Virus record (IMG/VR): IMGVR_UViG_2698536443_000023
Coordinates: 1 to 25,114 of that record
DNA: 25,114 bases
Reading direction: 5' to 3' (one strand)
DNA from: a virus
Lineage: Duplodnaviria; Heunggongvirae; Uroviricota; Caudoviricetes
Part shown: in pieces, positions 6,540 through 25,114 of the stretch
Layout: each line of letters starts with the position of its first letter
How positions within the stretch are numbered: position 1 is the stretch's first letter
Notes under the pieces: model-generated
What the model was told of the DNA's origin: nothing
Databases searched by the model: none
Seen by the model: only the letters and a program-made list of their open reading frames with translations
Position numbers and translations under genes: made by a program

Positions 6540-6570
6540 AAGTGCCTCCCATTATTAGGGGGCACTTTGA
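6540..6570. terminator. Candidate bidirectional stem-loop terminator between A and the convergent cargo operon
   Basis: Inverted repeat GTGCCTCCC / GGGGGCAC with 7-nt loop, flanked by T/A-rich tracts on both strands, within an AT-rich spacer. Confidence 0.4.
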
Positions 6571-6584
6571 TTGATGGGGGTGAT

Positions 6585-7868: not shown

Positions 7869-8910
7869 CTCCCAGAAGAGAAAGTTGCTGTGTTTTTACA
7901 CCGGATGCTGATTTAATTAAGTTTTGAACGTCTTTAAAATCGGATAGTGGAATGTTCATTATCGTAGCTGAGTACTCCGACAAGGCATGTTTAATTTCTT
8001 CTTGAGGTGTGGTTCCCCTAAGTAAAGGACAAAGTATCGCTCTTTTTAATTGAGCTGCATATCTCACAGTATGAGATGTCCCACTTTTTAGGCCCCATTC
8101 AACTGGGATTAATACATCACTTAAAGCTGCTTGAATTCTATTTCTACGAACAAAGTTTTCCTGTGATGGCTTTTGGTTTGGTAAATACTCAGTAAGAATC
8201 AGTCCGCCATTATTAACAATATGGCCTCTCATCTCGCCACTATTTTTGGGGTAATTTGAGTTTACACCTGTACCTAGCACAGCAATTGTCGGTATTTTAA
8301 ATAATAGGGATGCTTCATGTGCAGATTGATCTATACCATATGCTAAACCGCTTACAGTTGAATAATCTGAATCTATAAATTGTGAGATTACTGCTTGAGT
8401 TAAATAAATTCCAAGCGCGGTTGGGTTTCTAGTGCCGACAACTCCAACACACTTTTTATCTAGCAAAGATACATCGCCTTGAGCAAACAACCAGAAAGGC
8501 GGTTCAGACAGGTCATTCAACTTGTCTGGATAGTTTGGAGAACCATGGTGGATAATTTTGTAACCACTATTATGATAATGTGTGAGTAAGATTTTAGCCG
8601 TAGAAATCATGCGGTCCCGAAAAACAGACCAATTGCTTTCATTCAAATAATAAGGTTGGCGATGAAGTTTTACTCCGAGTAGATACTCAAAGTTGGCTAA
8701 TGTTTGGCTGGTAACAATGTCTCTAAATCTGATTCCCTTTTGAGCAACTTTATATAGAGTCCAATAACTCACGCCATGTATTTCTGATAGTGCCAACAAA
8801 GCGGCACTTTCTGTGTTCCATCGAGCTGTTTCAATATCCGTCATAATGTTCGCCAAAATGGAAGATTTTTTATCGCTTTTATCATAGGTTTGTATAAAAG
8901 TGTAGCACAT
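7861..8910 (-). CDS. DprA/Smf-like (SLOG superfamily Rossmann-fold) protein, cargo in the tin/old hotspot
   Basis: 349-aa ORF. Central region VGVVGTRNPTALG...VSGLAYGIDQSAHEASL...IAVLGTGVNSNYPKNS...RRNRIQAALSDVLIPVEWGLKSGTSHT matches the conserved DprA Rossmann core (VGsR, SGlAxGID, AVLGxG..YP, RNRI, SGSL/T). Overlaps the downstream PRTase gene by 8 nt. Confidence 0.8.
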   Translation of the reverse strand: MCYTFIQTYDKSDKKSSILANIMTDIETARWNTESAALLALSEIHGVSYWTLYKVAQKGIRFRDIVTSQTLANFEYLLGVKLHRQPYYLNESNWSVFRDRMISTAKILLTHYHNSGYKIIHHGSPNYPDKLNDLSEPPFWLFAQGDVSLLDKKCVGVVGTRNPTALGIYLTQAVISQFIDSDYSTVSGLAYGIDQSAHEASLLFKIPTIAVLGTGVNSNYPKNSGEMRGHIVNNGGLILTEYLPNQKPSQENFVRRNRIQAALSDVLIPVEWGLKSGTSHTVRYAAQLKRAILCPLLRGTTPQEEIKHALSEYSATIMNIPLSDFKDVQNLIKSASGVKTQQLSLLGDE

Positions 8911-9049
8911 TAAACTAAGACTTTAGAGGGCATGTTCTTGCATCAAAATGCATGTAAAAAAACAAAAAATTAATGAACCTTAGGTCTTATCCAGTCAATC
9001 TCTAGTGTTCACATGCATCTGCATTAAAACCGACTCATGAAGCGGGCGG

Positions 9050-9068
9050 GCGAGGCGGGGAAAGCACT
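9050..9068. other. cos site (19-nt cohesive-end sequence of P2-type phages)
   Basis: GGCGAGGCGGGGAAAGCAC matches the P2 cohesive end as I recall it, in the expected position between the hotspot and Q. Confidence 0.75.
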
Positions 9069-9208
9069 GCGCGCTGGCGGTGGTGCTGATTTTATTTTTT
9101 CAGCGTCTGAGCGCGTCGTGAAGGCGTTTACTTGGCCTGCTGGGCGTTGGTGTGTCTGCGGGGTGTTTTGTGCGGTGGTGAGCGTGTGAGGGCGTGATGA
9201 CGGGGTGT

Positions 9209-9230
9209 AAAAAAGCCGCCCGCAGGCGGC
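9209..9230 (-). terminator. Rho-independent terminator downstream of Q
   Basis: On the minus strand: GCCGCC-TGCG-GGCGGC hairpin followed by TTTTTT, immediately after the Q stop codon. Confidence 0.6.
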
Positions 9231-9235
9231 GATGT

Positions 9236-10270
9236 TCAGCCGTTGTCAGTGTCCAGTGAGTAGTTTTTAAAGCGGATGACCTCCTGACCGAGCCAGCCGT
9301 TTATCTCGCGGATCCTGTCCTGTAGCGGGATAAGCTCATTGCGGACAAAGACCTTTGCCACTTTCTCAATATCACCCAGCGACCCGACGTTCTCCGGCTT
9401 GCCGCCCATCAACTGAAAGGGGATGCGGTGCGCGTCCAGCAGGTCAGCGGCGCTGGCTTTTTTGATATTAAAAAAATCGTCCTTCGTTGCCACTTCACTG
9501 AGCGGGATAATTTTGATGCCGTCGGCTTTCCCCTGTGGGGCATAGAGAAACAGATTTTTAAAGTTGTTGCGGCCTTTCGACTTCACCATGTTTTCGCGGA
9601 GCATTTCGATATCGTTGCGATCCTGTACGGCATCAGTGACGTACATGATGTATCCGGCATGAGCGCCGTTTTCGTAATACTTGCGGCGGAACAGTGTGGC
9701 TGATTCATTCAGCCAGGCAGAATTAAGGGCGCTGAGATATTCCGGCAGGCCGTACAGCTCCTGATTGATATCCGGCTCCAGCAGGTGAAACACGGAGCCG
9801 GGCGTGAAGGCTGTCGGCTCGTTGAAGGACGGCACCCACCAGTAAACATCCTCCTCCACGCCACGGCGGGTATATTTTGCCGGTGAGGTTTCCAGTCTGA
9901 TGACCTTACCGGTGGTGCTGTAACGCTTTTCCAGAAACGCATTACCGAACACCAGAAAATCCAGCACAAAGCGGCTGAAATCCTGTTGCGAAAGCCACGG
10001 ATGCGGGATAAATGTCGAGGCCAGAATATTGCGTTTAACGTAAATCGGTGAGCTGTGATGCACGGCAGCACGCAGACTTTTTGCCAGACCGGTAAAGCTG
10101 ACCGGTGGCTCATACCATCTGCCGTTACTGATGCACTCGACGTAATCCAGAATGTCACGGCGGTCGAGTACCGGCACCGGCTCACCAAAGGTGAATGCCT
10201 CCATTTTCGGGGCGCTGGCGGTCATTTTTTTTGCCGCAGGTTGCGGTGTTTTCCCTTTTTTCTTGCTCAT
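9236..10270 (-). CDS. Q: Portal (capsid) protein Q
   Basis: 344-aa ORF matching P2 Q in size and in position, leftward from the divergent late promoter region and next to cos. Confidence 0.95.
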   Translation of the reverse strand: MSKKKGKTPQPAAKKMTASAPKMEAFTFGEPVPVLDRRDILDYVECISNGRWYEPPVSFTGLAKSLRAAVHHSSPIYVKRNILASTFIPHPWLSQQDFSRFVLDFLVFGNAFLEKRYSTTGKVIRLETSPAKYTRRGVEEDVYWWVPSFNEPTAFTPGSVFHLLEPDINQELYGLPEYLSALNSAWLNESATLFRRKYYENGAHAGYIMYVTDAVQDRNDIEMLRENMVKSKGRNNFKNLFLYAPQGKADGIKIIPLSEVATKDDFFNIKKASAADLLDAHRIPFQLMGGKPENVGSLGDIEKVAKVFVRNELIPLQDRIREINGWLGQEVIRFKNYSLDTDNG

Positions 10271-12042
10271 CAGTAAAACTCCAGAATGGTGGATGTCAGC
10301 GGGGTGCTGATACCGGCGGTGAGTGGCTCATTTAACAGGGCGTGCATGGTCGCCCAGGCGAGGTCGGCGTGGCTGGCTTCCTCGCTGCGGCTGGCCTCAT
10401 AGGTGGCGCTGCGTCCGCTGCTGGTCATGGTCTTGCGGATAGCCATAAACGAGCTGGTGATGTCGGTGGCGCTGACGTCATATTCCAGACAGCCACGGCG
10501 GATAACGTCTTTTGCCTTGAGCACCATTGCGGTTTTCATTTCCGGTGTGTAGCGGATATCGCGCGCGGCAGGATAGAACGAGCGCACGAGCTGGAACACG
10601 CCGATACCGAGGCCGGTGGCATCAATACCGATGTATTCGACGTTATATTTTTCGGTGAGTTTGCGGATGGATTCAGCCTGGGTGGCAAAGTCCATGCCTT
10701 TCCACTGGTGACGCTCAAGTATTCTGAATTTGCCACCGGCCACCACCGGCGGTGCCAGTACCACGCATCCGGCACTGTCGCCACGGTGTGACGGGTCGTA
10801 ACCAATCCATACCGGGCGGGAGCCGAACGGATTGGCGGCAAAGGGTGCATAGTCTTCCCATTCTTCCAGCGTGTCGACCATGCAGCGTTGCAGCTCCTCG
10901 AACGGGAACACCGATGCCTTGTCGTCAACAAATTCACACATGAACAGGTTTTTAAAATCGTCGGCGCTGTTTTCGCGTTTGAGCTGCTCAATGTCGAACA
11001 GCGTGCAGCCGCCTTTCAGGGCGTCCTCAATGGTGACAATCTGCCGCCACTGGCCGTCCGCACAGAGAAGACCTCCGGCAAGGGCGTTATGACTGACGTC
11101 GATTTCCACGCGTTCGGCGGCGCTGGCGCGTCCCCGGTTGAACAGTTCACCCGACCAGAACGGGTAGGCGTCGTGCGCCAGCGTGGACGGGGTGGAGAAA
11201 TAGGTCGAGCGCAGGTGGCTCTGTGAGGCCATACCTGATGCCACCTTACGCAGTACCTGAAAATTCGGGATCCAGAAAATCTCATCGACGTACAGGTCGC
11301 CGTTATGGCTCTGTGCGGTGTTGGAGTTGGTGCCGAGAAAAATCAGTTTTGCGCCGTTATTGCCCAGGACAATCGGGTCACCGGTCAGGTCAACGTCAAC
11401 CAGACGGGCAAAGGCGATGATGTATTCACGGAACACATACGCCTGCGTTTTACTGGCCGACAGAAAAATCTGGTTATGGCCGGTTTTCAGGGCGCGCAGC
11501 AGCGCCTCGCGGGAAAAATAAAACGTCGCGCCAATCTGGCGGGATTTCAGGATATCGCGGATGCGGTGCTCAAGCCCGGCGCGATACCAGTGCAACTGAT
11601 AGTCGAAAGACTGCTCAAAGAAAATCTGCTCCAGCTTTTCGATGGCCTCGTCACTGAAAAAATTCTTTTTCGGTTTGCGCCGCCCGCCTTTGTTGCGGTT
11701 AGCGACGTTCGGATTAAGGTCTGCCTCGTTGCCGGTCTGACTGTAACGGTTTACCCGTGCCAGTCGTTCAATCTGACGTCCCAGCAGGTCAATTTCCTTG
11801 AAGTCACCGCCGGTTTTCTGCGGTTTGATGATGAGCTGGGTCAGCCGCGCTTCCAGACTCATTTCGACACGGCTGATGGGGGCAACACTGTCCCAGCCGT
11901 CGCGCTGTTTCCAGCTCTGCACCGTCGGGCGTTTCATCTGCAACATGGCGGCAATCTGCGGCACGGAAAACCCCTGCCAGTACAGCAGCGCCGCCTGACG
12001 ACGCGGGTCGTGTAAAAGAGTGGTGTCTGTGGTGATGGTCAT
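10270..12042 (-). CDS. P: Terminase large (ATPase) subunit P
   Basis: 590-aa product from MTITTDTT, matching P2 P in length. Six-frame ORF extends to 12072, but the internal ATG at 12042 gives the P2-sized protein. Overlaps the Q start. Confidence 0.93.
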   Translation of the reverse strand: MTITTDTTLLHDPRRQAALLYWQGFSVPQIAAMLQMKRPTVQSWKQRDGWDSVAPISRVEMSLEARLTQLIIKPQKTGGDFKEIDLLGRQIERLARVNRYSQTGNEADLNPNVANRNKGGRRKPKKNFFSDEAIEKLEQIFFEQSFDYQLHWYRAGLEHRIRDILKSRQIGATFYFSREALLRALKTGHNQIFLSASKTQAYVFREYIIAFARLVDVDLTGDPIVLGNNGAKLIFLGTNSNTAQSHNGDLYVDEIFWIPNFQVLRKVASGMASQSHLRSTYFSTPSTLAHDAYPFWSGELFNRGRASAAERVEIDVSHNALAGGLLCADGQWRQIVTIEDALKGGCTLFDIEQLKRENSADDFKNLFMCEFVDDKASVFPFEELQRCMVDTLEEWEDYAPFAANPFGSRPVWIGYDPSHRGDSAGCVVLAPPVVAGGKFRILERHQWKGMDFATQAESIRKLTEKYNVEYIGIDATGLGIGVFQLVRSFYPAARDIRYTPEMKTAMVLKAKDVIRRGCLEYDVSATDITSSFMAIRKTMTSSGRSATYEASRSEEASHADLAWATMHALLNEPLTAGISTPLTSTILEFY

Positions 12043-12215
12043 GAATACCTCGCCGTGATGAATACACGGCAAGGCTACTGAGTCGCGCCCCGCGATTCGC
12101 TAAGGTGCTGTTGTGTCAGTGATAAGCCATCCGGGACTGATGGCGGAGGATGCGCATCGTCGGGAAACTGATGCCGACATGTGACTCCTCTAATCACTAT
12201 TCAGGACTCCTGACA
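12043..12215. promoter_or_regulatory. Divergent late promoter region between P and O (expected Ogr-dependent promoters)
   Basis: Intergenic region between divergently transcribed late operons, as in P2. No operator motif confidently identified by eye. Confidence 0.4.
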
Positions 12216-13070
12216 ATGGCAAAAAAAGTCTCAAAATTCTTTCGTATCGGCGTTGAGGGTGACACCTGTGACGGGCGTGTCATCAGTGCGCAGGATATTC
12301 AGGAAATGGCCGAAACCTTTGACCCGCGAGTCTATGGTTGCCGCATTAACCTGGAACATCTGCGCGGCATCCTGCCTGACGGTATTTTTAAGCGTTATGG
12401 CGATGTGGCCGAACTGAAGGCCGAAAAGATTGACGATGATTCGGCGCTGAAAGGCAAATGGGCGCTGTTTGCGAAAATCACCCCGACCGATGACCTTATC
12501 GCGATGAACAAGGCCGCGCAGAAGGTCTACACCTCAATGGAAATTCAGCCGAACTTTGCCAACACCGGCAAATGTTATCTGGTGGGTCTGGCCGTCACCG
12601 ATGACCCGGCAAGCCTCGGCACGGAATACCTGGAATTCTGCCGCACGGCAAAACACAACCCCCTGAACCGCTTCAAATTAAGCCCTGAAAACCTGATTTC
12701 AGTGGCAACGCCTGTTGAGCTGGAATTTGAAGACCTGCCTGAAACCGTGTTCACCGCCCTGACCGAAAAGGTGAAATCCATTTTTGGCCGCAAACAGGCC
12801 AGCGATGATGCCCGTCTGAATGATGTGCATGAAGCGGTGACCGCTGTTGCTGAACATGTGCAGGAAAAACTGAGTGCCACTGAGCAGCGACTCGCTGAGA
12901 TGGAAACCGCCTTTTCCGCACTTAAGCAGGATGTGACTGACAGGGCGGATGAAACCAGCCAGGCATTCACCCGCCTGAAAAACAGTCTCGACAGCACCGA
13001 AAGTCTGACCCAGCAGCGCCGCAGTAAAGCCACCGGCGGTGGCGGTGATGCCCTGCTGACGAACTGCTGA
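12216..13070 (+). CDS. O: Capsid scaffolding protein O
   Basis: 284-aa product from MAKKVSKFFRIGVEG, matching P2 O. The six-frame ORF start at 12150 is likely too long. Confidence 0.9.
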   Translation: MAKKVSKFFRIGVEGDTCDGRVISAQDIQEMAETFDPRVYGCRINLEHLRGILPDGIFKRYGDVAELKAEKIDDDSALKGKWALFAKITPTDDLIAMNKAAQKVYTSMEIQPNFANTGKCYLVGLAVTDDPASLGTEYLEFCRTAKHNPLNRFKLSPENLISVATPVELEFEDLPETVFTALTEKVKSIFGRKQASDDARLNDVHEAVTAVAEHVQEKLSATEQRLAEMETAFSALKQDVTDRADETSQAFTRLKNSLDSTESLTQQRRSKATGGGGDALLTNC

Positions 13071-13128
13071 CCGGCGTCAGTCAGTCCGGGAAAACCTTCA
13101 CGATTAACCCTTAATTTCAGGAAAAACT

Positions 13129-14202
13129 ATGCGCCAGGAAACCCGCTTTAAATTTAATGCCTACCTGTCCCGTGTTGCCGAACTGAACGGCATCGACGCC
13201 GGTGATGTGTCGAAAAAATTCACCGTTGAACCGTCGGTCACCCAGACCCTGATGAACACCATGCAGGAGTCCTCTGACTTTCTGACCCGCATCAACATTG
13301 TGCCGGTCAGCGAAATGAAAGGGGAAAAAATTGGCATCGGTGTCACCGGCTCCATCGCCAGCACCACCGACACCGCCGGTGGCACCGAGCGTCAGCCGAA
13401 GGACTTCTCGAAGCTGGCGTCAAACAAGTACGAATGCGACCAGATTAACTTCGATTTTTATATCCGCTACAAAACGCTGGACCTGTGGGCGCGTTATCAG
13501 GATTTCCAGCTCCGTATCCGTAACGCCATTATCAAACGCCAGTCCCTTGATTTCATCATGGCCGGTTTTAACGGCGTGAAGCGTGCCGAAACCTCTGACC
13601 GCAACAGCAATCCGATGCTGCAGGATGTGGCGGTCGGCTGGCTGCAGAAATACCGTAATGAAGCCCCGGCGCGCGTGATGAGCAAGGTCACTGACGAGGA
13701 AGGGCACACCACCTCTGAGGTCATCCGCGTGGGTAAGGGCGGTGATTATGCCAGCCTTGATGCACTGGTGATGGATGCGACCAACAACCTGATTGAGCCG
13801 TGGTATCAGGAAGACCCTGACCTTGTGGTGATTGTGGGACGTCAGCTACTGGCGGACAAGTATTTTCCCATCGTCAACAAGGAGCAGGACAACAGCGAAA
13901 TGCTGGCCGCTGACGTCATCATCAGCCAGAAACGCATCGGCAACCTGCCAGCGGTACGCGTCCCGTACTTCCCGGCGGATGCGATGCTCATCACGAAGCT
14001 GGAAAACCTGTCCATCTACTACATGGATGACAGCCATCGCCGCGTGATTGAGGAAAACCCGAAACTCGACCGCGTGGAGAACTACGAGTCAATGAACATT
14101 GATTACGTGGTGGAAGACTACGCCGCCGGTTGTCTGGTGGAAAAAATCAAGGTCGGTGACTTCTCCACACCGGCTAAAGCGACCGCAGAGCCGGGAGCGT
14201 AA
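13129..14202 (+). CDS. N: Major capsid protein N
   Basis: 357-aa ORF with size and order identical to P2 N. Confidence 0.95.
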   Translation: MRQETRFKFNAYLSRVAELNGIDAGDVSKKFTVEPSVTQTLMNTMQESSDFLTRINIVPVSEMKGEKIGIGVTGSIASTTDTAGGTERQPKDFSKLASNKYECDQINFDFYIRYKTLDLWARYQDFQLRIRNAIIKRQSLDFIMAGFNGVKRAETSDRNSNPMLQDVAVGWLQKYRNEAPARVMSKVTDEEGHTTSEVIRVGKGGDYASLDALVMDATNNLIEPWYQEDPDLVVIVGRQLLADKYFPIVNKEQDNSEMLAADVIISQKRIGNLPAVRVPYFPADAMLITKLENLSIYYMDDSHRRVIEENPKLDRVENYESMNIDYVVEDYAAGCLVEKIKVGDFSTPAKATAEPGA

Positions 14203-14205
14203 CCG

Positions 14206-14949
14206 ATGACGAGTCCCGCACAGCGCCACATGATGCGGGTCTCGGCAGCGATGACCGCGCAGCGGGAAGCCGCCCCGCTGCGACATGCAACTGTCTATGA
14301 GCAGATGCTGGTCAAGCTGGCCGCAGACCAGCGCACACTGAAAGCGATTTATTCAAAAGAGCTGAAGGCCGCGAAAAAACGCGAACTGCTGCCGTTCTGG
14401 TTGCCGTGGGTGAACGGCGTGCTGGAGCAGGGCAAAGGTGCACAGGATGACATTCTGATGACGGTCATGCTGTGGCGTCTGGATACCGGCGATATTGCCG
14501 GTGCGCTGGAGATTGCCCGTTATGCCCTGAAGTACGGTCTGACCATGCCGGGTAAACACCGCCGCACCCCGCCGTACATGTTCACCGAGGAGGTGGCGCT
14601 CGCGGCCATGCGTGCTCACGCTGCCGGTGAGTCTGTGGATACCCGCCTGCTGACGGACACCCTTGAACTGACTGCCACGGCAGACATGCCTGATGAAGTG
14701 CGCGCAAAGCTGCACAAAATCACCGGTCTGTTTCTGCGTGACGCTGGTGATGCCGCAGGTGCGCTGGCGCACCTGCAACGTGCGACACAGCTCGACTGTC
14801 AGGCAGGCGTCAAAAAAGAGATTGAACGACTGGAGCGGGAGCTGAAACCGAAGCCGGAGCCGCAGCCAAAAGCGGCCACCCGCGCCCCGCGTAAGACCCG
14901 GAGCGTGACACCGGCAAAACGTGGACGCCCGAAAAAGAAAGCCAGTTAA
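14206..14949 (+). CDS. M: Terminase small (endonuclease) subunit M
   Basis: 247-aa ORF with basic C-terminal tail; size and order match P2 M. Confidence 0.9.
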   Translation: MTSPAQRHMMRVSAAMTAQREAAPLRHATVYEQMLVKLAADQRTLKAIYSKELKAAKKRELLPFWLPWVNGVLEQGKGAQDDILMTVMLWRLDTGDIAGALEIARYALKYGLTMPGKHRRTPPYMFTEEVALAAMRAHAAGESVDTRLLTDTLELTATADMPDEVRAKLHKITGLFLRDAGDAAGALAHLQRATQLDCQAGVKKEIERLERELKPKPEPQPKAATRAPRKTRSVTPAKRGRPKKKAS

Positions 14950-15048
14950 CAACCGAATGCGCCCCGCGCCAGGGCGGCACGCCGGTCAGTGAGGGTGAAT
15001 CACCTGACACTGCACCGGCGTCCACCGCCCGACTTTTCAGAGGTAGTC

Positions 15049-15558
15049 ATGATGACGCTGATTATTCCGCGAAAGGAGGCTCCTGTATCCGGTGAGGGTA
15101 CGGTGGTCATCCCGCAACCGGCAGGCGACGAGCCGGTGATTAAAAACACGTTCTTTTTTCCCGATATCGACCCGAAGCGCGTCCGGGAACGTATGCGCCT
15201 TGAGCAGACCGTCGCCCCCGCCCGTCTGCGTGAGGCCATCAAGTCAGGCATGGCGGAGACGAATGCGGAGCTGTACGAGTACCGCGAACAGAAAATTGCC
15301 GCCGGTTTTACGCGTCTGGCGGACGTCCCGGCGGACGACATCGACGGTGAAAGCATCAAAGTTTTTTACTACGAGCGCGCCGTGTGTGCGATGGCGACCG
15401 CGTCACTTTATGAACGTTATCGCGGTGTGGATGCCAGTGCGAAAGGCGACAAGAAGGCCGACAGCATTGACAGCACCATTGATGAGCTGTGGCGGGATAT
15501 GCGCTGGGCAGTGGCGCGCATCCAGGACAAGCCGCGCTGCATCGTGAGTCAAATCTGA
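15049..15558 (+). CDS. L: Head completion/stabilisation protein L
   Basis: 169-aa product from MMTLIIPRK, matching P2 L in length. Six-frame ORF extends upstream to 14989. Confidence 0.85.
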   Translation: MMTLIIPRKEAPVSGEGTVVIPQPAGDEPVIKNTFFFPDIDPKRVRERMRLEQTVAPARLREAIKSGMAETNAELYEYREQKIAAGFTRLADVPADDIDGESIKVFYYERAVCAMATASLYERYRGVDASAKGDKKADSIDSTIDELWRDMRWAVARIQDKPRCIVSQI

Positions 15559-15761
15559 TGAAGACCTTTGCGCTACAGGGCGACACGCTCGACGCCATCT
15601 GTGTCCGGTATTACGGGCGCACTGAGGGTGTGGTTGAGACCGTGCTCGCCACAAATCCGGGACTGGCTGAACTGGGTGCGGTGCTGCCACACGGCACCGC
15701 CGTCGAACTGCCCGACGTTCAGACCGCGCCCGTGGCTGAAACTGTCAATCTGTGGGAGTAA
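15558..15761 (+). CDS. X: Tail protein X (LysM-like)
   Basis: 67-aa product MKTFALQGDTLDAICVRYYG. ATG overlaps the L stop (TGATG). Matches P2 X. Confidence 0.85.
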   Translation: MKTFALQGDTLDAICVRYYGRTEGVVETVLATNPGLAELGAVLPHGTAVELPDVQTAPVAETVNLWE

Positions 15762-15764
15762 CGC

Positions 15765-16046
15765 ATGACAGCAGAAGAAAAAAGCGTCCTGTCGCTTTTC
15801 ATGATTGGGGTGCTGATTGTTGTCGGCAAGGTGCTTGCCGGTGGTGAACCCATCACCCCGCGTCTGTTTATCGGGCGCATGTTGCTCGGTGGTTTTGTCT
15901 CGATGGTTGCCGGTGTTGTTCTGGTGCAGTTTCCTGACCTGTCACTGCCTGCGGTGTGCGGCATCGGCTCCATGCTGGGTATCGCCGGTTATCAGGTGAT
16001 TGAGATTGCCATTCAGCGCCGTTTTAAGGGCAGGGGGAAACAGTAA
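15765..16046 (+). CDS. Y: Holin Y
   Basis: 93-aa product with hydrophobic transmembrane segments and charged C-terminus; matches P2 Y in size and position. Confidence 0.9.
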   Translation: MTAEEKSVLSLFMIGVLIVVGKVLAGGEPITPRLFIGRMLLGGFVSMVAGVVLVQFPDLSLPAVCGIGSMLGIAGYQVIEIAIQRRFKGRGKQ

Positions 16047-16543
16047 TGCCGGTAATTAACACGCATCAGAATATCGCGGCCTTTCTCGACATGCTGGCAG
16101 TGTCCGAAGGGACGGCGAATCACCCGCTGACGAAAAACCGGGGCTATGACGTGATAGTCACCGGACTGGACGGGAAGCCGGAAATTTTCACCGACTACAG
16201 TGACCACCCGTTCGCACATGGCCGACCGGCGAAGGTGTTTAACCGTCGCGGTGAAAAATCCACGGCCTCCGGTCGCTATCAGCAGCTTTACCTGTTCTGG
16301 CCGCACTACCGCAAACAGCTTGCCCTGCCTGATTTCAGTCCGTTGTCACAGGACAGGCTCGCCATTCAGTTGATCCGCGAACGCGGTGCGCTGGATGACA
16401 TCCGGGCGGGACGCATTGAGCGCGCCATTTCACGCTGTCGCAATATCTGGGCGTCCCTGCCGGGTGCCGGTTACGGTCAGCGTGAGCATTCACTGGAAAA
16501 ACTGGTCACCGTCTGGCGTACCGCTGGCGGCGTACCGGCTTAA
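16046..16543 (+). CDS. K: Endolysin K (lambda R-like lysozyme/transglycosylase fold)
   Basis: 165-aa product. Motifs FLDMLAVSEGT, GYDVIV, FTDYSDHP, NIWASLPGAGYGQ resemble lambda R endolysin. Position after the holin. Confidence 0.9.
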   Translation: MPVINTHQNIAAFLDMLAVSEGTANHPLTKNRGYDVIVTGLDGKPEIFTDYSDHPFAHGRPAKVFNRRGEKSTASGRYQQLYLFWPHYRKQLALPDFSPLSQDRLAIQLIRERGALDDIRAGRIERAISRCRNIWASLPGAGYGQREHSLEKLVTVWRTAGGVPA

Positions 16544-16557
16544 ACGGAGTAAACACC

Positions 16558-16983
16558 ATGAAGAAATTATCCCTTTCACTGATGCTGAACGTGTCGCTGG
16601 CGCTGATGCTGGCACTGTCCCTGATTTACCCGCAGAGCGTGGCCGTCAGTTTTGTCGCCGCCTGGGCGATTCTGGCGACGGTTATCTGTATGGTTGCCGG
16701 TGGTGTCGGCGTGTATGCCACTGAGTATGTGCTGGAACGCTACGGGCGGGAGCTGCCACCGGAATCGCTGGCCGTGAAGATTGTCACGTCGCTGTTTTTA
16801 CAGCCGGTGCCGTGGCGCAGACGGGCGGCGGCTCTGGTGGTGATGGTGGCGACGTTTGTCTCGCTGATTGCTGCCGGGTGGATTTTTACCGCGCTGATTT
16901 ATCTCATGACGTCGCTGTTTTTCCGGCTGATACGCACGGCCTGCCGTCAGCGTATTGAGGGGCGGGAACCATGTCAAGGCTGA
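16558..16983 (+). CDS. lysA: Lysis-timing membrane protein LysA
   Basis: 141-aa multi-transmembrane product in the P2 lysA position. Confidence 0.8.
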   Translation: MKKLSLSLMLNVSLALMLALSLIYPQSVAVSFVAAWAILATVICMVAGGVGVYATEYVLERYGRELPPESLAVKIVTSLFLQPVPWRRRAAALVVMVATFVSLIAAGWIFTALIYLMTSLFFRLIRTACRQRIEGREPCQG

Positions 16984-17396
16984 TGACTGTGCTGGTTGTG
17001 TTGTTATCGCTGGCGGTGGCCGGTCTGTTTCTGGTGAAACACAAAAATGACAGCCTGCGCGCCTCGCTGGACAGGGCGAATAACGTCGCCAGCGGGCAGC
17101 AGACGACCATCACCATGCTGAAAAATCAGCTTCATGTTGCGCTCACCAGGGCAGACAAAAACGAGCTGGCGCAGGTGGCACTGCGTCAGGAACTGGAAAA
17201 TGCCGCGAAGCGTGAAGCACAGCGCGAGAAAGCCATCACGAGGTTACTGAATGAAAACGAAGATTTCCGCCGCTGGTATGGCGCTGACCTGCCTGATGCT
17301 GTGCGCCGGTTGCACCAGCGCCCCGCCTGCACCGACGCCAGTGATTGTCCACAACGCCTGCCCGAAAGTGAGTCTTTGCCCGATGCCGGGCAGTGA
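16971..17396 (+). CDS. lysB: LysB, Rz-like inner-membrane spanin
   Basis: 141-aa product with N-terminal transmembrane segment followed by a charged helical region; matches P2 LysB. Confidence 0.85.
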   Translation: MSRLMTVLVVLLSLAVAGLFLVKHKNDSLRASLDRANNVASGQQTTITMLKNQLHVALTRADKNELAQVALRQELENAAKREAQREKAITRLLNENEDFRRWYGADLPDAVRRLHQRPACTDASDCPQRLPESESLPDAGQ

Positions 17397-17541
17397 CCCG
17401 CAGACGAACGGCGATTTAAGTGCCGATATCCGGCAGCTTGAGAACGCGCTGGCACGCTGTGCCAGCCAGGTAAAAATGATTAAACACTGTCAGGACGAAA
17501 ACGATGCTCAAACCCGACAGCCTGCGCAGGGCGCTGACTGA
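17251..17541 (+). CDS. lysC: LysC, Rz1-like outer-membrane lipoprotein spanin, embedded in lysB in another frame
   Basis: 96-aa product with lipoprotein signal (LCAGC lipobox) and proline-rich region. Begins inside lysB in a different frame and extends into the start of R, as in P2. Confidence 0.8.
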   Translation: MKTKISAAGMALTCLMLCAGCTSAPPAPTPVIVHNACPKVSLCPMPGSDPQTNGDLSADIRQLENALARCASQVKMIKHCQDENDAQTRQPAQGAD

Positions 17542-17971
17542 TGCCGTCACGGTGCTGAAAACTAACCCCGATATGCTTCGGATATTCGTGGATAACGGGA
17601 GTATTGCCTCCACACTGGCGACGTCGCTGTCATTCGAAAAGCGTTACACGCTCAATGTCATTGTGACCGATTTTACCGGTGATTTTGACCTGCTCATCGT
17701 GCCGGTGCTGGCGTGGCTGCGGGAAAATCAGCCCGACATCATGACCACCGACGAAGGCCAGAAAAAGGGCTTCACGTTTTATGCAGACATCAACAATGAC
17801 AGCAGTTTTGATATCAGCATCAGCCTGATGCTGACCGAGCGCACGCTGGTCAGTGAGGTGGACGGCGCGCTGCATGTGAAGAATATCCCGGAACCTCTGC
17901 CGCCGGAGCCGGTCACCCGCCCGATGGAGCTGTATATCAATGGCGAACTGGTGAGTAAGTGGGATGAATGA
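17504..17971 (+). CDS. R: Tail completion protein R
   Basis: 155-aa ORF with P2 synteny and size. Confidence 0.9.
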   Translation: MLKPDSLRRALTDAVTVLKTNPDMLRIFVDNGSIASTLATSLSFEKRYTLNVIVTDFTGDFDLLIVPVLAWLRENQPDIMTTDEGQKKGFTFYADINNDSSFDISISLMLTERTLVSEVDGALHVKNIPEPLPPEPVTRPMELYINGELVSKWDE

Positions 17972-18416
17972 GTTTAAGCGTTTTGAAGACCGGCTGACCG
18001 GACTGATTGAATCGTTGTCACCGTCAGGGCGTCGGAGACTGAGCGCCGAACTGGCGAAGCGCCTGCGGCAGAGTCAGCAGCGTCGGGTGATGGCACAGAA
18101 AGCCCCGGACGGCACACCCTACGTGCCACGCCAGCAGCAGAGCGCCAGAAAAAAGACTGGTCGTGTTAAGCGAAAAATGTTTGCGAAACTTATCACCAGT
18201 CGTTTTTTGCATATCCGCGCCAGCCCGGAGCAGGCATCAATGGAGTTTTACGGCGGGAAGTCACCGAAAATCGCCAGTGTGCATCAGTTCGGTCTGTCGG
18301 AAGAAAACCGGAAAGACGGTAAGAAAATTGATTATCCGGCGCGTCCTCTGCTCGGCTTTACCGGTGAGGATGTGCAGATGATTGAAGAGATTATCCTGGC
18401 TCACCTCGACCGTTAG
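17964..18416 (+). CDS. S: Tail completion protein S
   Basis: 150-aa ORF with P2 synteny and size. Confidence 0.9.
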   Translation: MNEFKRFEDRLTGLIESLSPSGRRRLSAELAKRLRQSQQRRVMAQKAPDGTPYVPRQQQSARKKTGRVKRKMFAKLITSRFLHIRASPEQASMEFYGGKSPKIASVHQFGLSEENRKDGKKIDYPARPLLGFTGEDVQMIEEIILAHLDR

Positions 18417-18482
18417 TTGTGCCATTCCCGACACCTCATCGTCACATTGCCGCCGGTATGACCCGGCGGCATCCTTCCCGTT

Positions 18483-19118
18483 ATGAACACTCTCGCAAAT
18501 ATTCAGGAACTCGCGCGCGCACTGCGCAATATGATCCGCACCGGTCTTGTCGTCGAAACCGACCTTAACGCCGGTCGCTGCCGTGTGCAGACTGGCGGCA
18601 TGTGCACCGACTGGCTTCAGTGGCTGACCCATCGCGCCGGTCGTTCGCGCACGTGGTGGGCACCTTCCGAGGGGGAACAGGTGCTGATTCTGTCCGTGGG
18701 CGGCGAACTCGACACCGCGTTCGTTCTGCCGGGGATTTATTCCGGCGATAACCCCGCGCCGTCTGCGTCGGCGGATGCCCTGCATATCCGTTTCCCTGAC
18801 GGGGCGGTGATTGAGTACGAACCCGAAACCAGTGCACTCACGGTAAGCGGAATTAAAACGGCCAGCGTGACGGCTTCTGATTCTGTTACTGCCACGGTGC
18901 CGGTGGTCACGGTGAAAGCATCAACCCGCGTTACCCTGGACACACCGGAGGTGGTCTGCACCAACAGGCTGATTACCGGCACGCTGGAAGTGCAGAAGGG
19001 CGGGACGATGCGCGGCAACATTGAACACACCGGCGGTGAACTCTCATCAAACGGTAAGGTACTGCATACCCATAAACACCCCGGCGACAGCGGCGGCACA
19101 ACCGGGGGACCTCTATGA
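18483..19118 (+). CDS. V: Baseplate central spike protein V
   Basis: 211-aa ORF with P2 synteny and size. Confidence 0.9.
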   Translation: MNTLANIQELARALRNMIRTGLVVETDLNAGRCRVQTGGMCTDWLQWLTHRAGRSRTWWAPSEGEQVLILSVGGELDTAFVLPGIYSGDNPAPSASADALHIRFPDGAVIEYEPETSALTVSGIKTASVTASDSVTATVPVVTVKASTRVTLDTPEVVCTNRLITGTLEVQKGGTMRGNIEHTGGELSSNGKVLHTHKHPGDSGGTTGGPL

Positions 19119-19462
19119 CTGCGCGTTATCTCGGAATGAATCGCAGTGATGGCCTGACTGTCACTGACCTTGAGCATATCAGCCAGAGTATCGGCGATAT
19201 CCTGCGCACACCGGTCGGCTCACGGGTGATGCGTCGTGATTACGGCTCGTTGCTGGCGTCAATGATTGACCAGCCGCAGACCCCGGCGCTTGAGTTGCAG
19301 ATTAAGGTCGCCTGTTACATGGCGGTGCTGAAATGGGAACCCCGCGTCACCCTGTCATCCGTCACCACGGCGCGCAGTTTTGACGGGCGAATGACGGTCA
19401 CGTTAACCGGCCAGCACAACGACACCGGCCAGCCACTTTCATTAACCATCCCTGTGAGTTGA
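19115..19462 (+). CDS. W: Baseplate wedge protein W (gp25-like)
   Basis: 115-aa ORF with P2 synteny and size; start overlaps the V stop. Confidence 0.9.
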   Translation: MTARYLGMNRSDGLTVTDLEHISQSIGDILRTPVGSRVMRRDYGSLLASMIDQPQTPALELQIKVACYMAVLKWEPRVTLSSVTTARSFDGRMTVTLTGQHNDTGQPLSLTIPVS

Positions 19463-19466
19463 AACC

Positions 19467-20375
19467 ATGCCGATTATCGACCTGAACCAGCTACCCGCAC
19501 CAGATGTGGTCGAGGAGCTGGACTTTGAAAGCATTCTCGCTGAACGCAAGGCGACACTGATTTCCCTTTACCCGGAAGACCAGCAGGAGGCGGTCGCCCG
19601 TACCCTGACGCTGGAATCTGAGCCTCTCGTCAAACTGCTGGAGGAAAATGCTTATCGTGAGCTTATCTGGCGTCAGCGTGTGAATGAGGCCGCACGGGCG
19701 GTGATGCTGGCCTGTGCCGCCGGTAATGACCTTGATGTGATTGGTGCCAATTACAACACCACGCGCCTGACTATCACCCCGGCAGATGATTCGACCATTC
19801 CGCCGACACCGGCAGTGATGGAATCTGACACCGATTATCGTCTGCGTATTCAGCAGGCTTTTGAGGGCTTAAGCGTCGCCGGGTCAGTGGGAGCCTATCA
19901 GTATCATGGTCGCAGTGCTGACGGGCGTGTCGCGGATATTTCTGTCACCAGTCCGTCTCCTGCCTGTGTCACCATCTCTGTGCTGTCACGTGAAAATAAC
20001 GGCGTCGCATCCGAAGACCTGCTGGCTGTGGTGCGTAACGCCCTTAATGGCGAGGACGTCAGGCCGGTGGCCGACCGCGTGACCGTGCAGTCTGCCGCCA
20101 TCGTTGAATACCAGATAAACGCCACGCTTTACCTTTACCCTGGTCCCGAAAGCGAACCCATCCGCGCTGCCGCTGTGAAAAAGCTGGAAGCGTATATCAC
20201 GGCACAGCACCGGCTGGGGCGCGACATCCGTCTGTCTGCCATTTATGCCGCTTTGCATGTGGAAGGTGTGCAGCGTGTCGAACTGGCTGCACCACTGGCC
20301 GACATCGTGCTCAACAGTACGCAGGCGTCTTTCTGTACCGAATACCGCGTCGTGACCGGAGGCTCGGATGAGTGA
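19467..20375 (+). CDS. J: Baseplate protein J
   Basis: 302-aa ORF with P2 synteny and size. Confidence 0.9.
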   Translation: MPIIDLNQLPAPDVVEELDFESILAERKATLISLYPEDQQEAVARTLTLESEPLVKLLEENAYRELIWRQRVNEAARAVMLACAAGNDLDVIGANYNTTRLTITPADDSTIPPTPAVMESDTDYRLRIQQAFEGLSVAGSVGAYQYHGRSADGRVADISVTSPSPACVTISVLSRENNGVASEDLLAVVRNALNGEDVRPVADRVTVQSAAIVEYQINATLYLYPGPESEPIRAAAVKKLEAYITAQHRLGRDIRLSAIYAALHVEGVQRVELAAPLADIVLNSTQASFCTEYRVVTGGSDE

Positions 20376-20898
20376 TTCGCGACTGCTGCCGACCGGCTCA
20401 TCACCGCTTGAGGTCGCCGCCGCAAAAGCCTGTGCGGAAATTGAAAAAACGCCGGTCAGTATTCGTGAGCTGTGGAACCCGGACACCTGTCCGGCAAATC
20501 TGCTGCCGTGGCTGGCGTGGGCGTTTTCGGTCGACAGGTGGGATGAAAAGTGGCCGGAAGCGACAAAACGCGCCGTTATCCGCGATGCGTATTTCATCCA
20601 CTGTCATAAAGGCACAATAGGTGCAATCCGGCGTGTGGTGGAGCCGCTCGGCTATCTCATCAACGTGACGGAGTGGTGGGAAACCAGTGACCCGCCAGGC
20701 ACCTTCCGGCTTGATATTGGTGTACTGGAAAGCGGCATCACAGAGGCAATGTATCAGGAAATGGAACGGCTTATTGCTGATGCCAAACCTGCAAGCCGTC
20801 ATCTTATTGGCCTGAACATTACCCGGGACATTCCCGGCTACCTGTTCGCCGGTGGTGTGGCTTACGACGGCGATGTAATTACGGTTTACCCCGGATAA
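20368..20898 (+). CDS. I: Baseplate protein I
   Basis: 176-aa ORF with P2 synteny and size; overlaps the J stop. Confidence 0.9.
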   Translation: MSDSRLLPTGSSPLEVAAAKACAEIEKTPVSIRELWNPDTCPANLLPWLAWAFSVDRWDEKWPEATKRAVIRDAYFIHCHKGTIGAIRRVVEPLGYLINVTEWWETSDPPGTFRLDIGVLESGITEAMYQEMERLIADAKPASRHLIGLNITRDIPGYLFAGGVAYDGDVITVYPG

Positions 20899-20908
20899 GT
20901 GAGGAATA

Positions 20909-23158
20909 ATGAGCACAAAATTCAGAACCGTTATCACCACTGCCGGTGCAGCAAAGCTGGCAGCGGCAACCGCACCGGGAGGGCGGAAGGTCAACATTAC
21001 CACGATGGCCGTCGGGGATGGCGGTGGTAAATTGCCTGTCCCGGATGCCGGACAGACCGGGCTTATCCACGAAGTCTGGCGACATGCGCTGAACAAAATC
21101 AGCCAGGACAAACGAAACAGTAATTATATTATCGCAGAGCTGGTTATTCCGCCGGAGGTGGGCGGTTTCTGGATGCGTGAACTTGGCCTGTACGATGATG
21201 CGGGAACGCTAATTGCCGTGGCGAACATGGCCGAAAGTTATAAGCCAGCCCTTGCCGAAGGCTCAGGGCGTTCGCAGACCTGCCGCATGGTCATCATCGT
21301 CAGCAGTGTGGCCTCAGTGGAGCTGACCATTGACACCACAACGGTGATGGCGACGCAGGATTACGTTGATGACAAAATTGCAGAGCACGAACAGTCACGA
21401 CGTCACCCGGACGCTTCTCTGACCGCAAAAGGTTTTACTCAGTTAAGCAGCGCGACCAACAGCACGTCTGAAACACTGGCCGCAACGCCGAAAGCAGTAA
21501 AGACCGCCTATGACCTTGCTAACGGGAAATATACTGCGCAGGATGCCACCACAGCGCGAAAAGGTCTTGTCCAACTCAGTAGTGCCACCAACAGCACGTC
21601 TGAAACGCTCGCCGCAACACCAAAAGCGGTTAAGGCAGCATATGACCTTGCTAATGGCAAATACACCGCGCAGGACGCCACCACCGCGCGAAAAGGCCTT
21701 GTTCAGCTCAGTAGTGCCACCAACAGCGATTCTGAAACGCTTGCGGCAACGCCAAAGGCGGTTAAGGCCGCGTATGACCTTGCTAACGGGAAATACACTG
21801 CACAGGATGCCACCACGGCGCGGAAAGGCCTTGTCCAGCTCAGTAGCGCCACCAACAGTGATTCTGAAACGCAGGCCGCAACACCAAAAGCGGTGAAGTC
21901 TGCCTATGACAATGCTGAAAAACGTCTTCAGAAAGATCAGAACGGTGCGGATATTCCTGATAAAGGACGCTTCCTGAGTAACATTAATGTTTACAGCAAA
22001 GGTGAAGTGGATAAGAAAAAGGGAATGCGAAAGTATTCGTTTGCAGCCCCTGCAAATGTCGTTGCCGGGAAGTGGTATCCCGTTATCTTTCGCCGTGCTG
22101 CCAGCCTTTCAGGAGAAATGGCATCCCGCGTCGTTATTTCCACTGGTTGTTATAACAGCGATTATGTAATGAATAACTGCGAGTTTAATGGCATGGTTAT
22201 GCCCGGAGGCTGGACTGATCGTGGTTCATATGCGGCAGGTTATTTCTGGACGTATCAGACTAATGAGCGTTCAATCCATTCCATTGTTACAAGCCTGAAA
22301 GATGATGATGTATGTAGTGTTTTTTATGTTGAAGCCAGAGCTTTCCCTGTGCAAATTCTTGCAGAGGAAGGGCTAACGGTTATTGTTCCGACAGAGGATT
22401 ATGTCGTCGGTCAAACGACATATAAGTGGGGGGCAACTAATCCTGCTACAGAAAGCACGAACGCACAGGCTATTCTGGATTTTAAAAATGGGCGCGGTTA
22501 TTACTGCTCACATCCATTTATTTCCAGCCTTTCGGGAAATGCTGCAACAGCAACGAAGTTAGCGAACGCAAGAAATATTAATGGTGTCAGATTTGATGGC
22601 TCTGCTGATATAAATATTAATACACTGGTATCCAGAAACCGTGTTACTGCATTAGGTGGGAGCGTAAAGGGGACACCAGGTATTCAGATGTATGAGGCAT
22701 ACAACAATGGCTACCCAACAGCCTATGGTAATGTGCTTCATCTCACTGGCGTAACCGCAGTAGGAGAGGGTGAGTTACTTATTGGCTGGAGTGGAACCAG
22801 CGGTGCTCATGCTCCGGCATATATTCGCTCCCGACGAGATACCACAGATGCTAACTGGTCTGGATGGGCGCAACTATATACAACTGCTCATAAACCCTCA
22901 GCGGGAGATGTTGGTGCATACACCAAAGCTGAATCAGATTCACGTTATGTGAGAGACATGCGGCTGGGCGGTGCATCTACATATAAACCAGCAAATAATG
23001 GTACTACATGGACGCATCAGGCTCCGTCAGGTTGCGTATATACCGGCATTATTGTTCAGGATACCGGCTCAAACTCTGCCGATAACATTGGTGGCGTATA
23101 TTACAGACCGGTGCAGAAATACATTAACGGGACATGGTATAACGTGGCGCAGGTATAA
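20909..23158 (+). CDS. H: Tail fibre protein H, with expanded internal tail-fibre repeats and divergent distal domain
   Basis: 749-aa ORF in the P2 H position. Contains the tail-fibre repeat motif (QLSSATNS.SETLAATPKAVK). The distal half is AT-rich and looks mosaic. Confidence 0.9.
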   Translation: MSTKFRTVITTAGAAKLAAATAPGGRKVNITTMAVGDGGGKLPVPDAGQTGLIHEVWRHALNKISQDKRNSNYIIAELVIPPEVGGFWMRELGLYDDAGTLIAVANMAESYKPALAEGSGRSQTCRMVIIVSSVASVELTIDTTTVMATQDYVDDKIAEHEQSRRHPDASLTAKGFTQLSSATNSTSETLAATPKAVKTAYDLANGKYTAQDATTARKGLVQLSSATNSTSETLAATPKAVKAAYDLANGKYTAQDATTARKGLVQLSSATNSDSETLAATPKAVKAAYDLANGKYTAQDATTARKGLVQLSSATNSDSETQAATPKAVKSAYDNAEKRLQKDQNGADIPDKGRFLSNINVYSKGEVDKKKGMRKYSFAAPANVVAGKWYPVIFRRAASLSGEMASRVVISTGCYNSDYVMNNCEFNGMVMPGGWTDRGSYAAGYFWTYQTNERSIHSIVTSLKDDDVCSVFYVEARAFPVQILAEEGLTVIVPTEDYVVGQTTYKWGATNPATESTNAQAILDFKNGRGYYCSHPFISSLSGNAATATKLANARNINGVRFDGSADININTLVSRNRVTALGGSVKGTPGIQMYEAYNNGYPTAYGNVLHLTGVTAVGEGELLIGWSGTSGAHAPAYIRSRRDTTDANWSGWAQLYTTAHKPSAGDVGAYTKAESDSRYVRDMRLGGASTYKPANNGTTWTHQAPSGCVYTGIIVQDTGSNSADNIGGVYYRPVQKYINGTWYNVAQV
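21428..21907 (+). repeat. In-frame tandem repeats, 132-bp unit (44 aa), about 3.6 copies, inside H
   Basis: Copies start at 21428, 21560, 21692 and 21824. Unit KGLVQLSSATNS(T/D)SETLAATPKAVKAAYDLANGKYTAQDATTAR is near-identical between copies; the last copy diverges after PKAVKSAYD. Confidence 0.85.
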
Positions 23159-23161
23159 TTT

Positions 23162-23689
23162 ATGCAGCATTTGATAAATATAACGGCGGGTAATCCAAAA
23201 ACGGTTGAACAATATCAATTGACAAAGAATTTTGATGTTGTCTGGTTTTTTTCAGAAGATGGTAAGAACTGGTACGAAGAACAAAAGTATTTTGCTGATG
23301 ACACGATAAAAATAGCGTACGACAAAGATAATATCATCCACTATGTGGAAAAGGATGTGACAGCTATCAGACCGGATGGATTAAGTGTTGTTGAAGTGGC
23401 GGATATTACTGCTAACCGACGGGCGGACATTTCAGGGAACTGGATGTTTAAGGACGGCAAAGTGATTAAACGCATTTATACGGCAGAGGAATTACAGCAG
23501 CAGGCAGAAATTCGGAAAGCCAGACTTCTTGCAGATGCTGAATCCGTGATTTTGCCGCTGGAGCGCGCGGTCAGACTGAACATGGCAACAGATGAGGAGC
23601 GTAGCCGACTGGAATCATGGGAACGCTACAGCGTTCTGGTCAGTCGTGTGGATCCTGCAAATCCTGAATGGCCGGAAATGCCACAATAA
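23162..23689 (+). CDS. G: Tail fibre assembly chaperone G
   Basis: 175-aa ORF directly downstream of H, matching P2 G in size and position (tail fibre assembly protein family). Confidence 0.9.
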
Positions 23690-23879
23690 GCTGTATAAGC
23701 TCTGGTGTGAGCTCACATATCTATAACACAGAGTAACCCCTAATCTGACAGTCCGCTCTGTGCCAGGAGCGGACATTGATAACATCAAGGCTCTCTGGTC
23801 AGAGGGACTCAGGTCATTTACAGCATACAAAGAAAAAATTGAAATATTTTTCAAATAAACACATTGCAGGGCTTAGGCC

Positions 23880-24650
23880 TTACTCTTTAGCTCGTTTGGT
23901 CATCTCATTTGCTAACTGTGTAGACCAATAATGTTGACTCTTTGCTTCTAATATGAAAAGTAGCGCTCTCACACATTGTAGCTGAGCATGCACATAAGTA
24001 TGAATATTACCAACCGAAGTAGGAACTAAGTGGGTTTCAGGTGTGTAGTAGTGGTAGATGCTCGTTTGTGAAGGATGAACATATTCGCTAAGTATGTCAT
24101 AAGTCAGTTCAAAATCACTTTCCATCTGATTAGTCTGCTTCATCTCATCTTTATAGAGTTCGCGTAAAGCAGTCATCACATGCATACTGACAGCAAGTAG
24201 GTTTTCAAAACGATATTTAGCCTCCTCAGTAAACATGTAGTCGTTCGGGTCAAATACTTCTTTCTGAATCTTTTCTTGCTCTGACTTTTTAAATCGAGAA
24301 CTATTCGTAAAGTTCAATATAACTTCGATAGCGTTATCTACACTTGCGTGTCCATTTTGGGTAGTCAAAATTTTCTCTACTTTCTTGTTTAAGAGTCGTG
24401 AGAAGGCATGAGTTTCAATCATTCCTCGGCTAACAATACAAGCGCTTTGGTATCGTTCGTTTTCGAGGAGGAGAAGCGCATCATCGAAGATGTCTATCTG
24501 CCTGTTCATAAGTAAATTGGCATAATTAACGAGATACAGTCCGCGGTCAGGGTTATATGTTTTTTCGACAATTACACCATTAATCTTGCTCAGCGCAGCT
24601 CTGGCGGCTTTTGCCTCATTCAGTCTCTGTTCTATAAGTTCTTTATACAT
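23880..24650 (-). CDS. Hypothetical protein of unknown function, cargo at the P2 Z/fun hotspot
   Basis: 256-aa ORF on the opposite strand to the flanking late genes. AAGGAAA Shine-Dalgarno before the ATG at 24650. Markedly AT-rich. No domain recognised. Occupies the variable locus between G and FI. Confidence 0.7.
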   Translation of the reverse strand: MYKELIEQRLNEAKAARAALSKINGVIVEKTYNPDRGLYLVNYANLLMNRQIDIFDDALLLLENERYQSACIVSRGMIETHAFSRLLNKKVEKILTTQNGHASVDNAIEVILNFTNSSRFKKSEQEKIQKEVFDPNDYMFTEEAKYRFENLLAVSMHVMTALRELYKDEMKQTNQMESDFELTYDILSEYVHPSQTSIYHYYTPETHLVPTSVGNIHTYVHAQLQCVRALLFILEAKSQHYWSTQLANEMTKRAKE

Positions 24651-24976
24651 GCTTTGTTTCCTTACAGGAGGATGTGTATCAACGAATAATCATTCCGCCT
24701 TTTGTCAGCTTGACTGTAAGGTATCATGCTGAAGTTAGCCATACAAAGCTCTGCCCATTATCAGTTTACCCAAAGCAGACTGTCAGATTTGATAGCGTTT
24801 GGGCTATGTAAATTGTCAGTCGGAAAATGAGTGAGTACAAATCAGGACAGGCGGGCAAATTGCCCGCCTTTTCTTTACCGGTGGTTGTGCTGTCGATTAG
24901 CCAACCGGGACAAATAGCCTGACATCTCCGGCACAACTGAAAATACCACTCACCCATTAACCACGGAGTTAAACGG

Positions 24977-25027
24977 ATGAGTGACTATCATCACGGCGTG
25001 CAGGTGCTGGAGATTAACGACGGCACC
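24977..25027 (+). pseudogene. FI: Tail sheath gene FI, interrupted after codon 17 by IS2
   Basis: ATG at 24977 with GGAG upstream encodes MSDYHHGVQVLEINDGT, matching the P2 FI N-terminus as recalled. The reading frame then runs into the IS2 terminal sequence. Confidence 0.7.
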
Positions 25028-25114
25028 TGGATTTGCCCCTATATTTCCAGACATCTGTTATCACTTAACCCATTACAAGCCCGCTGCCGCAGATATTCCC
25101 GTGGCGAGCGATAA
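25028..25114 (-). mobile_element. IS2 (IS3 family) right end, partial; the element continues beyond the window
   Basis: Reverse complement of 25028-25114 matches the IS2 right terminus as I recall it (...CGCTCGCCACGGGAATATCTGCGGCAGCGGGCTTGTAATGGGTTAAGTGATAACAGATGTCTGGAAATATAGGGGCAAATCCA). Recalled from memory, not searched. Confidence 0.75.
25039..25113 (-). CDS. insD: IS2 transposase (orfB/InsD) C-terminal fragment, partial at window edge
   Basis: Minus-strand translation gives ...YRSPREYLRQRACNGLSDNRCLEI followed by a stop, consistent with the IS3-family transposase C-terminus. Confidence 0.65.
   Translation of the reverse strand, partial: YRSPREYLRQRACNGLSDNRCLEI

Follow-up and report, generated by a model that had tools for sequence, protein, structure and literature searches.

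A P2-like Escherichia coli prophage with IS2 inserted after codon 17 of the tail sheath gene FI is probably tail-defective

Phage P2 cannot form tails without its tail sheath gene FI, which heads the late operon FI-FII-E-E'-T-U-D. Polar insertions of IS2 are classical in operons, for example in the gal operon, and prophages of the P2 type are classically not SOS inducible. In contractile sheaths, the N-terminal strand of one subunit pairs with the C terminus of its neighbor in a "handshake" beta-sheet, and this beta-sheet joins the sheath in the extended and contracted states alike (PMC10457771). IS2 itself is bounded by inverted repeats 41 and 42 bp long, of which the right repeat is the 41-bp one (PMC3299598), and, to go by the reference list of PMC12095673, the relief of polar IS2 insertions by rho mutations is likewise classical. 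Moreover, a gpA-gpQ hotspot and a DprA-containing system have been described in P2-like prophages (Rousset et al. 2022, PMC9122126). Finally, E. coli K-12 MG1655 carries an annotated cryptic prophage, PR-X, at 2167183-2167811 between cyaR/trhP and yegR, in which ogrK and a gpD fragment, yegZ, are found. Here, we describe a P2-like prophage in which FI runs into IS2, and we conclude that the locus as a whole is, in all likelihood, best explained by a simple insertion of IS2 into FI that has left a probably tail-defective prophage.

The window, by which we mean the whole 25,114-nt stretch of DNA that was analyzed, matches Peduovirus phage genomes at 96-97% identity. The host gene yegR occupies positions 1-318 as its first gene, and the prophage occupies the yegR / cyaR-yegQ(trhP) site. 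The edges of the window are gene calls (the ATG of yegR and the stop codon of the last called gene), not biological boundaries. As gpH is very variable, the exact gpH of the window was used as a query for near-identical prophages, which we call siblings. The features to which the text refers are as follows.

319 to 25027, no strand assigned: left ~24.7 kb of a P2-like (Peduovirus) prophage beside host yegR, by ORF list, Pfam and phage matches; gene order int, C, cox, B, A, ShosTA, Q, P, O, N, M, L, X, lysis genes, R, S, V, W, J, I, H, G, DUF5677 gene, first 17 FI codons.
6585 to 8910, minus strand: ShosT (6585-7868) and ShosA (7861-8910) in the gpA-gpQ hotspot, by PADLOC and Pfam.
23880 to 24650, minus strand: DUF5677 gene between gpG and FI, by Pfam (PF18928).
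24651 to 24976, plus strand: intergenic region 5' of FI, with no mismatches to the siblings.
24977 to 25027, plus strand: 5' fragment of FI, codons 1-17, by identity to E. coli E47 and six siblings.
25023 to 25027, no strand assigned: GCACC, the IS2 target site (left copy of the duplication), by the empty site in the siblings.
25028 to 25068, expected position: imperfect right terminal inverted repeat of IS2, which would lie here given the 41-bp length in PMC3299598.
25028 to 25114, minus strand: IS2 right end, outermost 87 nt, by 100% identity to annotated IS2 copies.
25039 to 25113, minus strand: last 24 codons plus stop of the IS2 transposase (OrfB part), by translation.
24977 to 25114, plus strand: FI-IS2 fusion ORF, 17 FI residues plus 28 IS2 residues plus TAA, by translation.

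Apart from FI, the prophage looks ordinary. The expected P2 genes are all of normal length, and IS2 is the sole visible lesion. The P2 gene order is present together with immunity of the P2 type (a 99-aa C repressor, Cox and an integrase), and because the immunity region is P2-type, induction with mitomycin C would be a weak test here. Positions 1-17868 of the window are 100% identical to the sibling in GCA_024453545.1, and across 10909-25027 three siblings differ from the window by 1-3 bases, the closest by 1 nt. Among the matches listed, six siblings with an identical gpH carry the same DUF5677 gene and an intact FI of 396 aa (Pfam sheath domains PF04984/PF17482, with the tube gene next), and 3' of FI the same six have FII, E, E', T, U, D, ogr and host yegQ. 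From what is known of P2, the late promoter of the FI operon, which depends on Ogr, presumably lies at 24651-24976. A strong terminator-like hairpin also stands between the DUF5677 gene and the start of FI, at 24849-24869 on the plus strand (AGGCGGGCAAATTGCCCGCCT, then a T-run), and a 63-aa minus-strand ORF near the hairpin (24766-24957) has no family match.

How FI is interrupted can be read at the end of the window. The ATG of FI lies at 24977, and codons 1-17 (MSDYHHGVQVLEINDGT), which span 24977-25027, exactly match the intact 396-aa sheath gene of E47 and the six siblings. Position 25027 is the exact last base with similarity to uninterrupted relatives. The next 87 nt, 25028-25114, are identical to DNA annotated as "IS3-like element IS2 family transposase" (87/87, E = 3e-37), and annotated IS2 matches to this stretch occur in 4,043 of the 5,426 complete E. 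coli genomes. Strain E2863 has a complete 1,331-bp IS2 between its own 5-bp duplication (GTTAC), with first bases TGGATTTGCC; the first base is the same in the window, and thus the IS2 part of the window starts at the very tip of the right end. Aligned with each other, the two termini of the reference IS2 copy form imperfect inverted repeats, as expected. Moreover, the minus strand of 25039-25113 translates to YRSPREYLRQRACNGLSDNRCLEI followed by a stop, which is identical to the annotated C terminus of the IS2 transposase (24 residues plus stop), and the presence of that C terminus on the minus strand identifies the right end of IS2, inverted relative to FI.

The original prediction, made from the sequence alone, was that FI starts normally and then reads into an inverted IS2 right terminus that includes the C-terminal codons of the transposase. 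Coordinates, orientation and identity were all correct, and database comparison assigned the terminal 87 nt to IS2. It had further proposed that FI is disrupted, and indeed, the FI frame does not continue intact: on translation it leaves FI past codon 17 and stops 28 IS2-derived codons on. The resulting fusion ORF encodes 45 aa, and its TAA (25112-25114) forms the final three bases of the window. The 45-aa fusion has been deposited as a "hypothetical protein" (CTY97920.1 / WP_162774718.1), and it forms a singleton cluster from one contig.

What lies on the other side of IS2 was sought outside the window. The source contig, CYFN01000023.1 of the draft E. coli assembly GCA_001283445.1, is 67,661 bp long and ends 5 nt past the window, and its final 92 nt are the IS2 end (92/92 identity). 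Short-read assembly breaks at a multicopy element such as IS2, which is why the contig goes no further, and the window cannot be extended from this assembly. We therefore turned to proteins, and the far junction was predicted before look-up as the last 92 nt of IS2, a duplicated GCACC and FI from codon 18 onward, so that its FI side reads GCACC-CGCGTCATTTCC. The empty target site in the siblings is GACGGCACC/CGCGTC. The FI allele used for the prediction was that of the six siblings, which share one common allele identical to that of E47; the four closest complete genomes carry four different alleles. All in-frame starts of the predicted junction were listed, and the seven candidate products were looked up by exact sequence in a collection of 15 billion proteins.

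Two of the seven predicted products, of 390 and 367 aa, matched proteins in the collection exactly, and in each case the match came from one contig of 85,717 bp; the other five candidate starts had no exact match in the same collection. The 390-aa chimera (WP_053902852.1) has a TTG start inside the IS2 left end and begins MSGDSGGQSS-TRVISTV..., while the 367-aa form (CTY83724.1) has an ATG start at Met30 of FI and is named "major tail sheath protein FI." The 390-aa chimera shows that the left end of IS2 is there, since the final 28 nt of that end are translated (as MSGDSGGQS). Five extra bases, G(C/T)ACN, precede codon 18, because the chimera keeps the frame and has the codons aGC-ACC; read from protein in this way, the right copy of the duplication is constrained to G(C/T)ACN and not at every base. 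Judged from the chimera, the other 379 codons of FI continue undamaged to the natural stop. Taken together, the left end, the 5-bp duplicate and the intact remainder of FI point to one simple transposition. Thus, the other IS2 end, the 5-bp duplication and the rest of FI, which the original prediction proposed to look for beyond the window, were recovered indirectly, through exact matches to two predicted products.

Read outward, the IS2 left end finishes with the 28 nt TTG TCT GGA GAT TCA GGG GGC CAG TCT A, which form an open frame. Because of this open TTG frame, insertions in one of three frames give N-terminally chimeric ORFs. Such ORFs are of a kind that gene callers accept.

Both halves of the junction are singletons. 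The RefSeq numbers of the chimera (…852), the lineage's gpD (…854) and the window's gpG (…879) fall within 27 of one another. The ENA accessions of the two halves share the CTY prefix yet are ~14,000 apart, and the latter counts against a common assembly. It is parsimonious to suppose that the 85.7-kb contig comes from the same assembly as the window. We assume that a single full-length IS2 of 1,331 bp lies between the two junctions, of which the left was read as DNA and the right via proteins.

An IS2-mediated rearrangement (a deletion, an inversion or recombination between copies), or a larger composite insertion bounded by IS2, is the alternative that survives best, and we consider it distinctly unlikely. 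Had a rearrangement occurred, the tail genes would be lost or far away. The contig ends inside IS2, so that the window is silent on what lies beyond, and E. coli genomes with IS2 have multiple copies that could serve as recombination substrates (a median of 2 matches to the 25028-25114 end, and up to 41). Moreover, an element between two IS2 copies in the same orientation would fit both junctions. A complementary junction exists, however, with the IS2 left end, the matching 5-bp duplicate and the whole remaining FI frame, whereas deletion or inversion would split or destroy the target duplication.

We favor simple transposition, in which IS2 would have entered FI between codons 17 and 18 and duplicated GCACC, with the transposase genes antisense to FI. 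FI translation would then end as the 45-aa peptide and give no functional sheath. The closest solved homologue of FI is the R-type pyocin sheath PA0622 (E = 8e-63), and FI residues 4-18 align with the PA0622 N terminus. Since the alignment starts at FI residue 4, the residues lost here are conserved. With the N-terminal strand gone, a restart product that lacks residues 1-17 or 1-29 is unlikely to assemble. We infer a tail defect from P2 genetics and the structure of the sheath.

How the insertion would affect the remainder of the operon is suggested by the layout of the transcript. The FI remainder (379 codons) is separated from the start codon and the late promoter by 1,336 bp, and the IS2 antisense stretch from the fusion stop to the FI remainder measures 1,244 nt, with C at 29% versus G at 24%. 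At the scanner's threshold there was no consensus promoter within IS2 reading toward the FI remainder, no intrinsic terminator inside IS2 and no hybrid promoter across the junction of the IS2 right end and FI toward the DUF5677 gene. A transcript from the late promoter would enter 1.24 kb of untranslated IS2 antisense RNA and probably be cut short by Rho, and termination by Rho would lower FII, E, E', T, U and D as well. As with the classical insertions, the tail genes 3' of FI could plausibly be subject to polarity of the Rho type. A search of the literature for an IS2 insertion mutant of P2, "sig5," returned nothing usable.

The prophage could stay maintained and express lysogenic cargo such as ShosTA, and perhaps it could still excise, replicate and lyse the cell, but it would release no infectious tailed particles. 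Thus, the lysogen likely keeps immunity and cargo while releasing no infectious particles. The FI defect could be complemented in trans by a co-resident P2-like prophage, and on the rare occasions when IS2 excises precisely, FI would be restored.

Alternatively, the insertion may be real and the phage viable nonetheless, which we think very unlikely. The 390-aa chimera, in which 10 IS2-encoded residues replace FI residues 1-17, would have to be translated from its TTG, on a transcript supplied by read-through or by outward transcription derived from IS2, and build a functional sheath, and the tail genes 3' of FI would still have to be expressed. The frame is indeed open from the IS2 left end into FI, RefSeq names the chimera a sheath protein, and the ends of IS3-family elements are often reported with outward promoters or parts of promoters (PMC12095673). 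No promoter-like site was found in IS2 toward FI, however, and no obvious ribosome-binding site lies 5' of the TTG, where the upstream sequence is TTATTTAAGTGATACTGG. The junction promoter with its -35 element in the IS2 right end (PMC12095673) would here face away from the FI remainder. Moreover, conservation of the replaced residues extends to the pyocin sheath, and it is these residues that make up the handshake strand. Finally, a P2 head would have to accommodate 1.3 kb of extra DNA, which makes plaque-forming particles that carry IS2 unlikely.

The simple insertion appears to be young. The near junction was absent when the 5,426 complete E. coli genomes were searched, and the contig collections (viral, GTDB-representative and metagenome) gave 0 matches. 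As siblings with 0-3 mismatches have an intact FI and the junction was found nowhere else, we conclude that the insertion is recent and private to the isolate. Least likely of all is an assembly artefact, or an insertion present in only a subpopulation of the culture: the contig does break in a repeat of a short-read draft assembly, but the join coincides with the terminal base of IS2 to the nucleotide, the reciprocal junction exists and carries the expected duplication, chimeric joins do not give both signatures, and a mostly intact FI would normally yield a contig running through FI.

The original prediction also supposed that the prophage still carries its defence cargo. This holds for ShosTA, for which the PADLOC matches are near full length (ShosT, E = 1.3e-293 over 427/427 positions; ShosA, E = 2.5e-232), but it does not extend to the DUF5677 gene, which has no defence-family match. 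Judged by the sequence of the adjacent ShosT and ShosA genes, ShosTA is real defence cargo. In Pfam, ShosTA has a DprA domain and a phosphoribosyltransferase domain that falls below the gathering score. The DUF5677 gene encodes 256 aa (PF18928, E = 1.3e-10) and has no PADLOC or PHROG match, and its allele was present at at least 98.9% identity in only 4 of the 5,426 complete genomes. At the gpA-gpQ (old/tin) hotspot, E47, the closest complete-genome relative, has a reverse transcriptase gene and not ShosTA, which indicates that cargo has been swapped between prophages that are otherwise ~98% identical.

Decay at this chromosomal site can go much further. In the draft genome GCA_038082355.1, a multiply deleted P2-like remnant occupies locus 5577-13527 at the same site. 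What survives in it is ogr, W, a terminase fragment, the portal gene, ShosA, an identical ShosT, a cox-like ORF, C and int, and it matches the window at 1-1841, 6047-10556 and 18843-20137. One could speculate that the IS2 insertion is not neutral decay and is instead a selected and excision-reversible "grounding," in which the loss of the first tail-operon gene halts the spread of the prophage while the host keeps ShosTA and the DUF5677 gene, and we give this idea very little credence. If it were true, the ShosTA-keeping remnant of GCA_038082355.1 would represent a more advanced stage of the same process.

The insertion is real but ordinary, a textbook IS insertion in a prophage gene with components that are all known. 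Inactivation of prophage genes by insertion sequences is commonplace, and no new element, mechanism or system is involved. For bookkeeping, the prophage should be scored as probably defective even though all of its visible genes but one are intact. Moreover, public annotation masks the disruption, as the chimera is listed as a "phage tail sheath protein" and the 45-aa fusion as a "hypothetical protein."

How the locus compares with known systems can be stated part by part. The visible part of IS2 (87 nt in the window, 92 nt in the contig and the transposase C terminus) is identical to known copies and shows no visible difference; the left-end codons and 5-bp duplication deduced from the chimera fit as well, and the interior of the present copy is unassembled. 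P2 gpFI and the FI-FII-E-E'-T-U-D operon are matched in the 17 N-terminal residues, in the place of FI after gpG and the cargo slot and in the gene order of the siblings, whereas FI here is split by IS2 after codon 17. As in the classical polar insertions, IS2 sits in the first gene of an operon, and by analogy a Rho-dependent loss of downstream expression would be expected. Unlike in those insertions, however, IS2 has here hit a phage late operon, which the lysogen keeps silent, and therefore the insertion costs the host nothing until the prophage tries to develop. The gpA-gpQ position of the ShosTA-type DprA system likewise agrees with the hotspot of Rousset et al. (PMC9122126), a paper about cargo whose text makes no mention of "defective" or "insertion sequence." Finally, PR-X and the remnant in GCA_038082355.1 share the yegR / cyaR-trhP(yegQ) site with the prophage studied here, and both are P2-like and non-functional. 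They represent late stages with large deletions, whereas no stage could be earlier than the one in the window, a single insertion in a prophage that otherwise equals its siblings. The prophage thus offers a clean and datable first step of decay at a site with known late-stage remnants, one of them PR-X and the other a remnant that has retained ShosTA.
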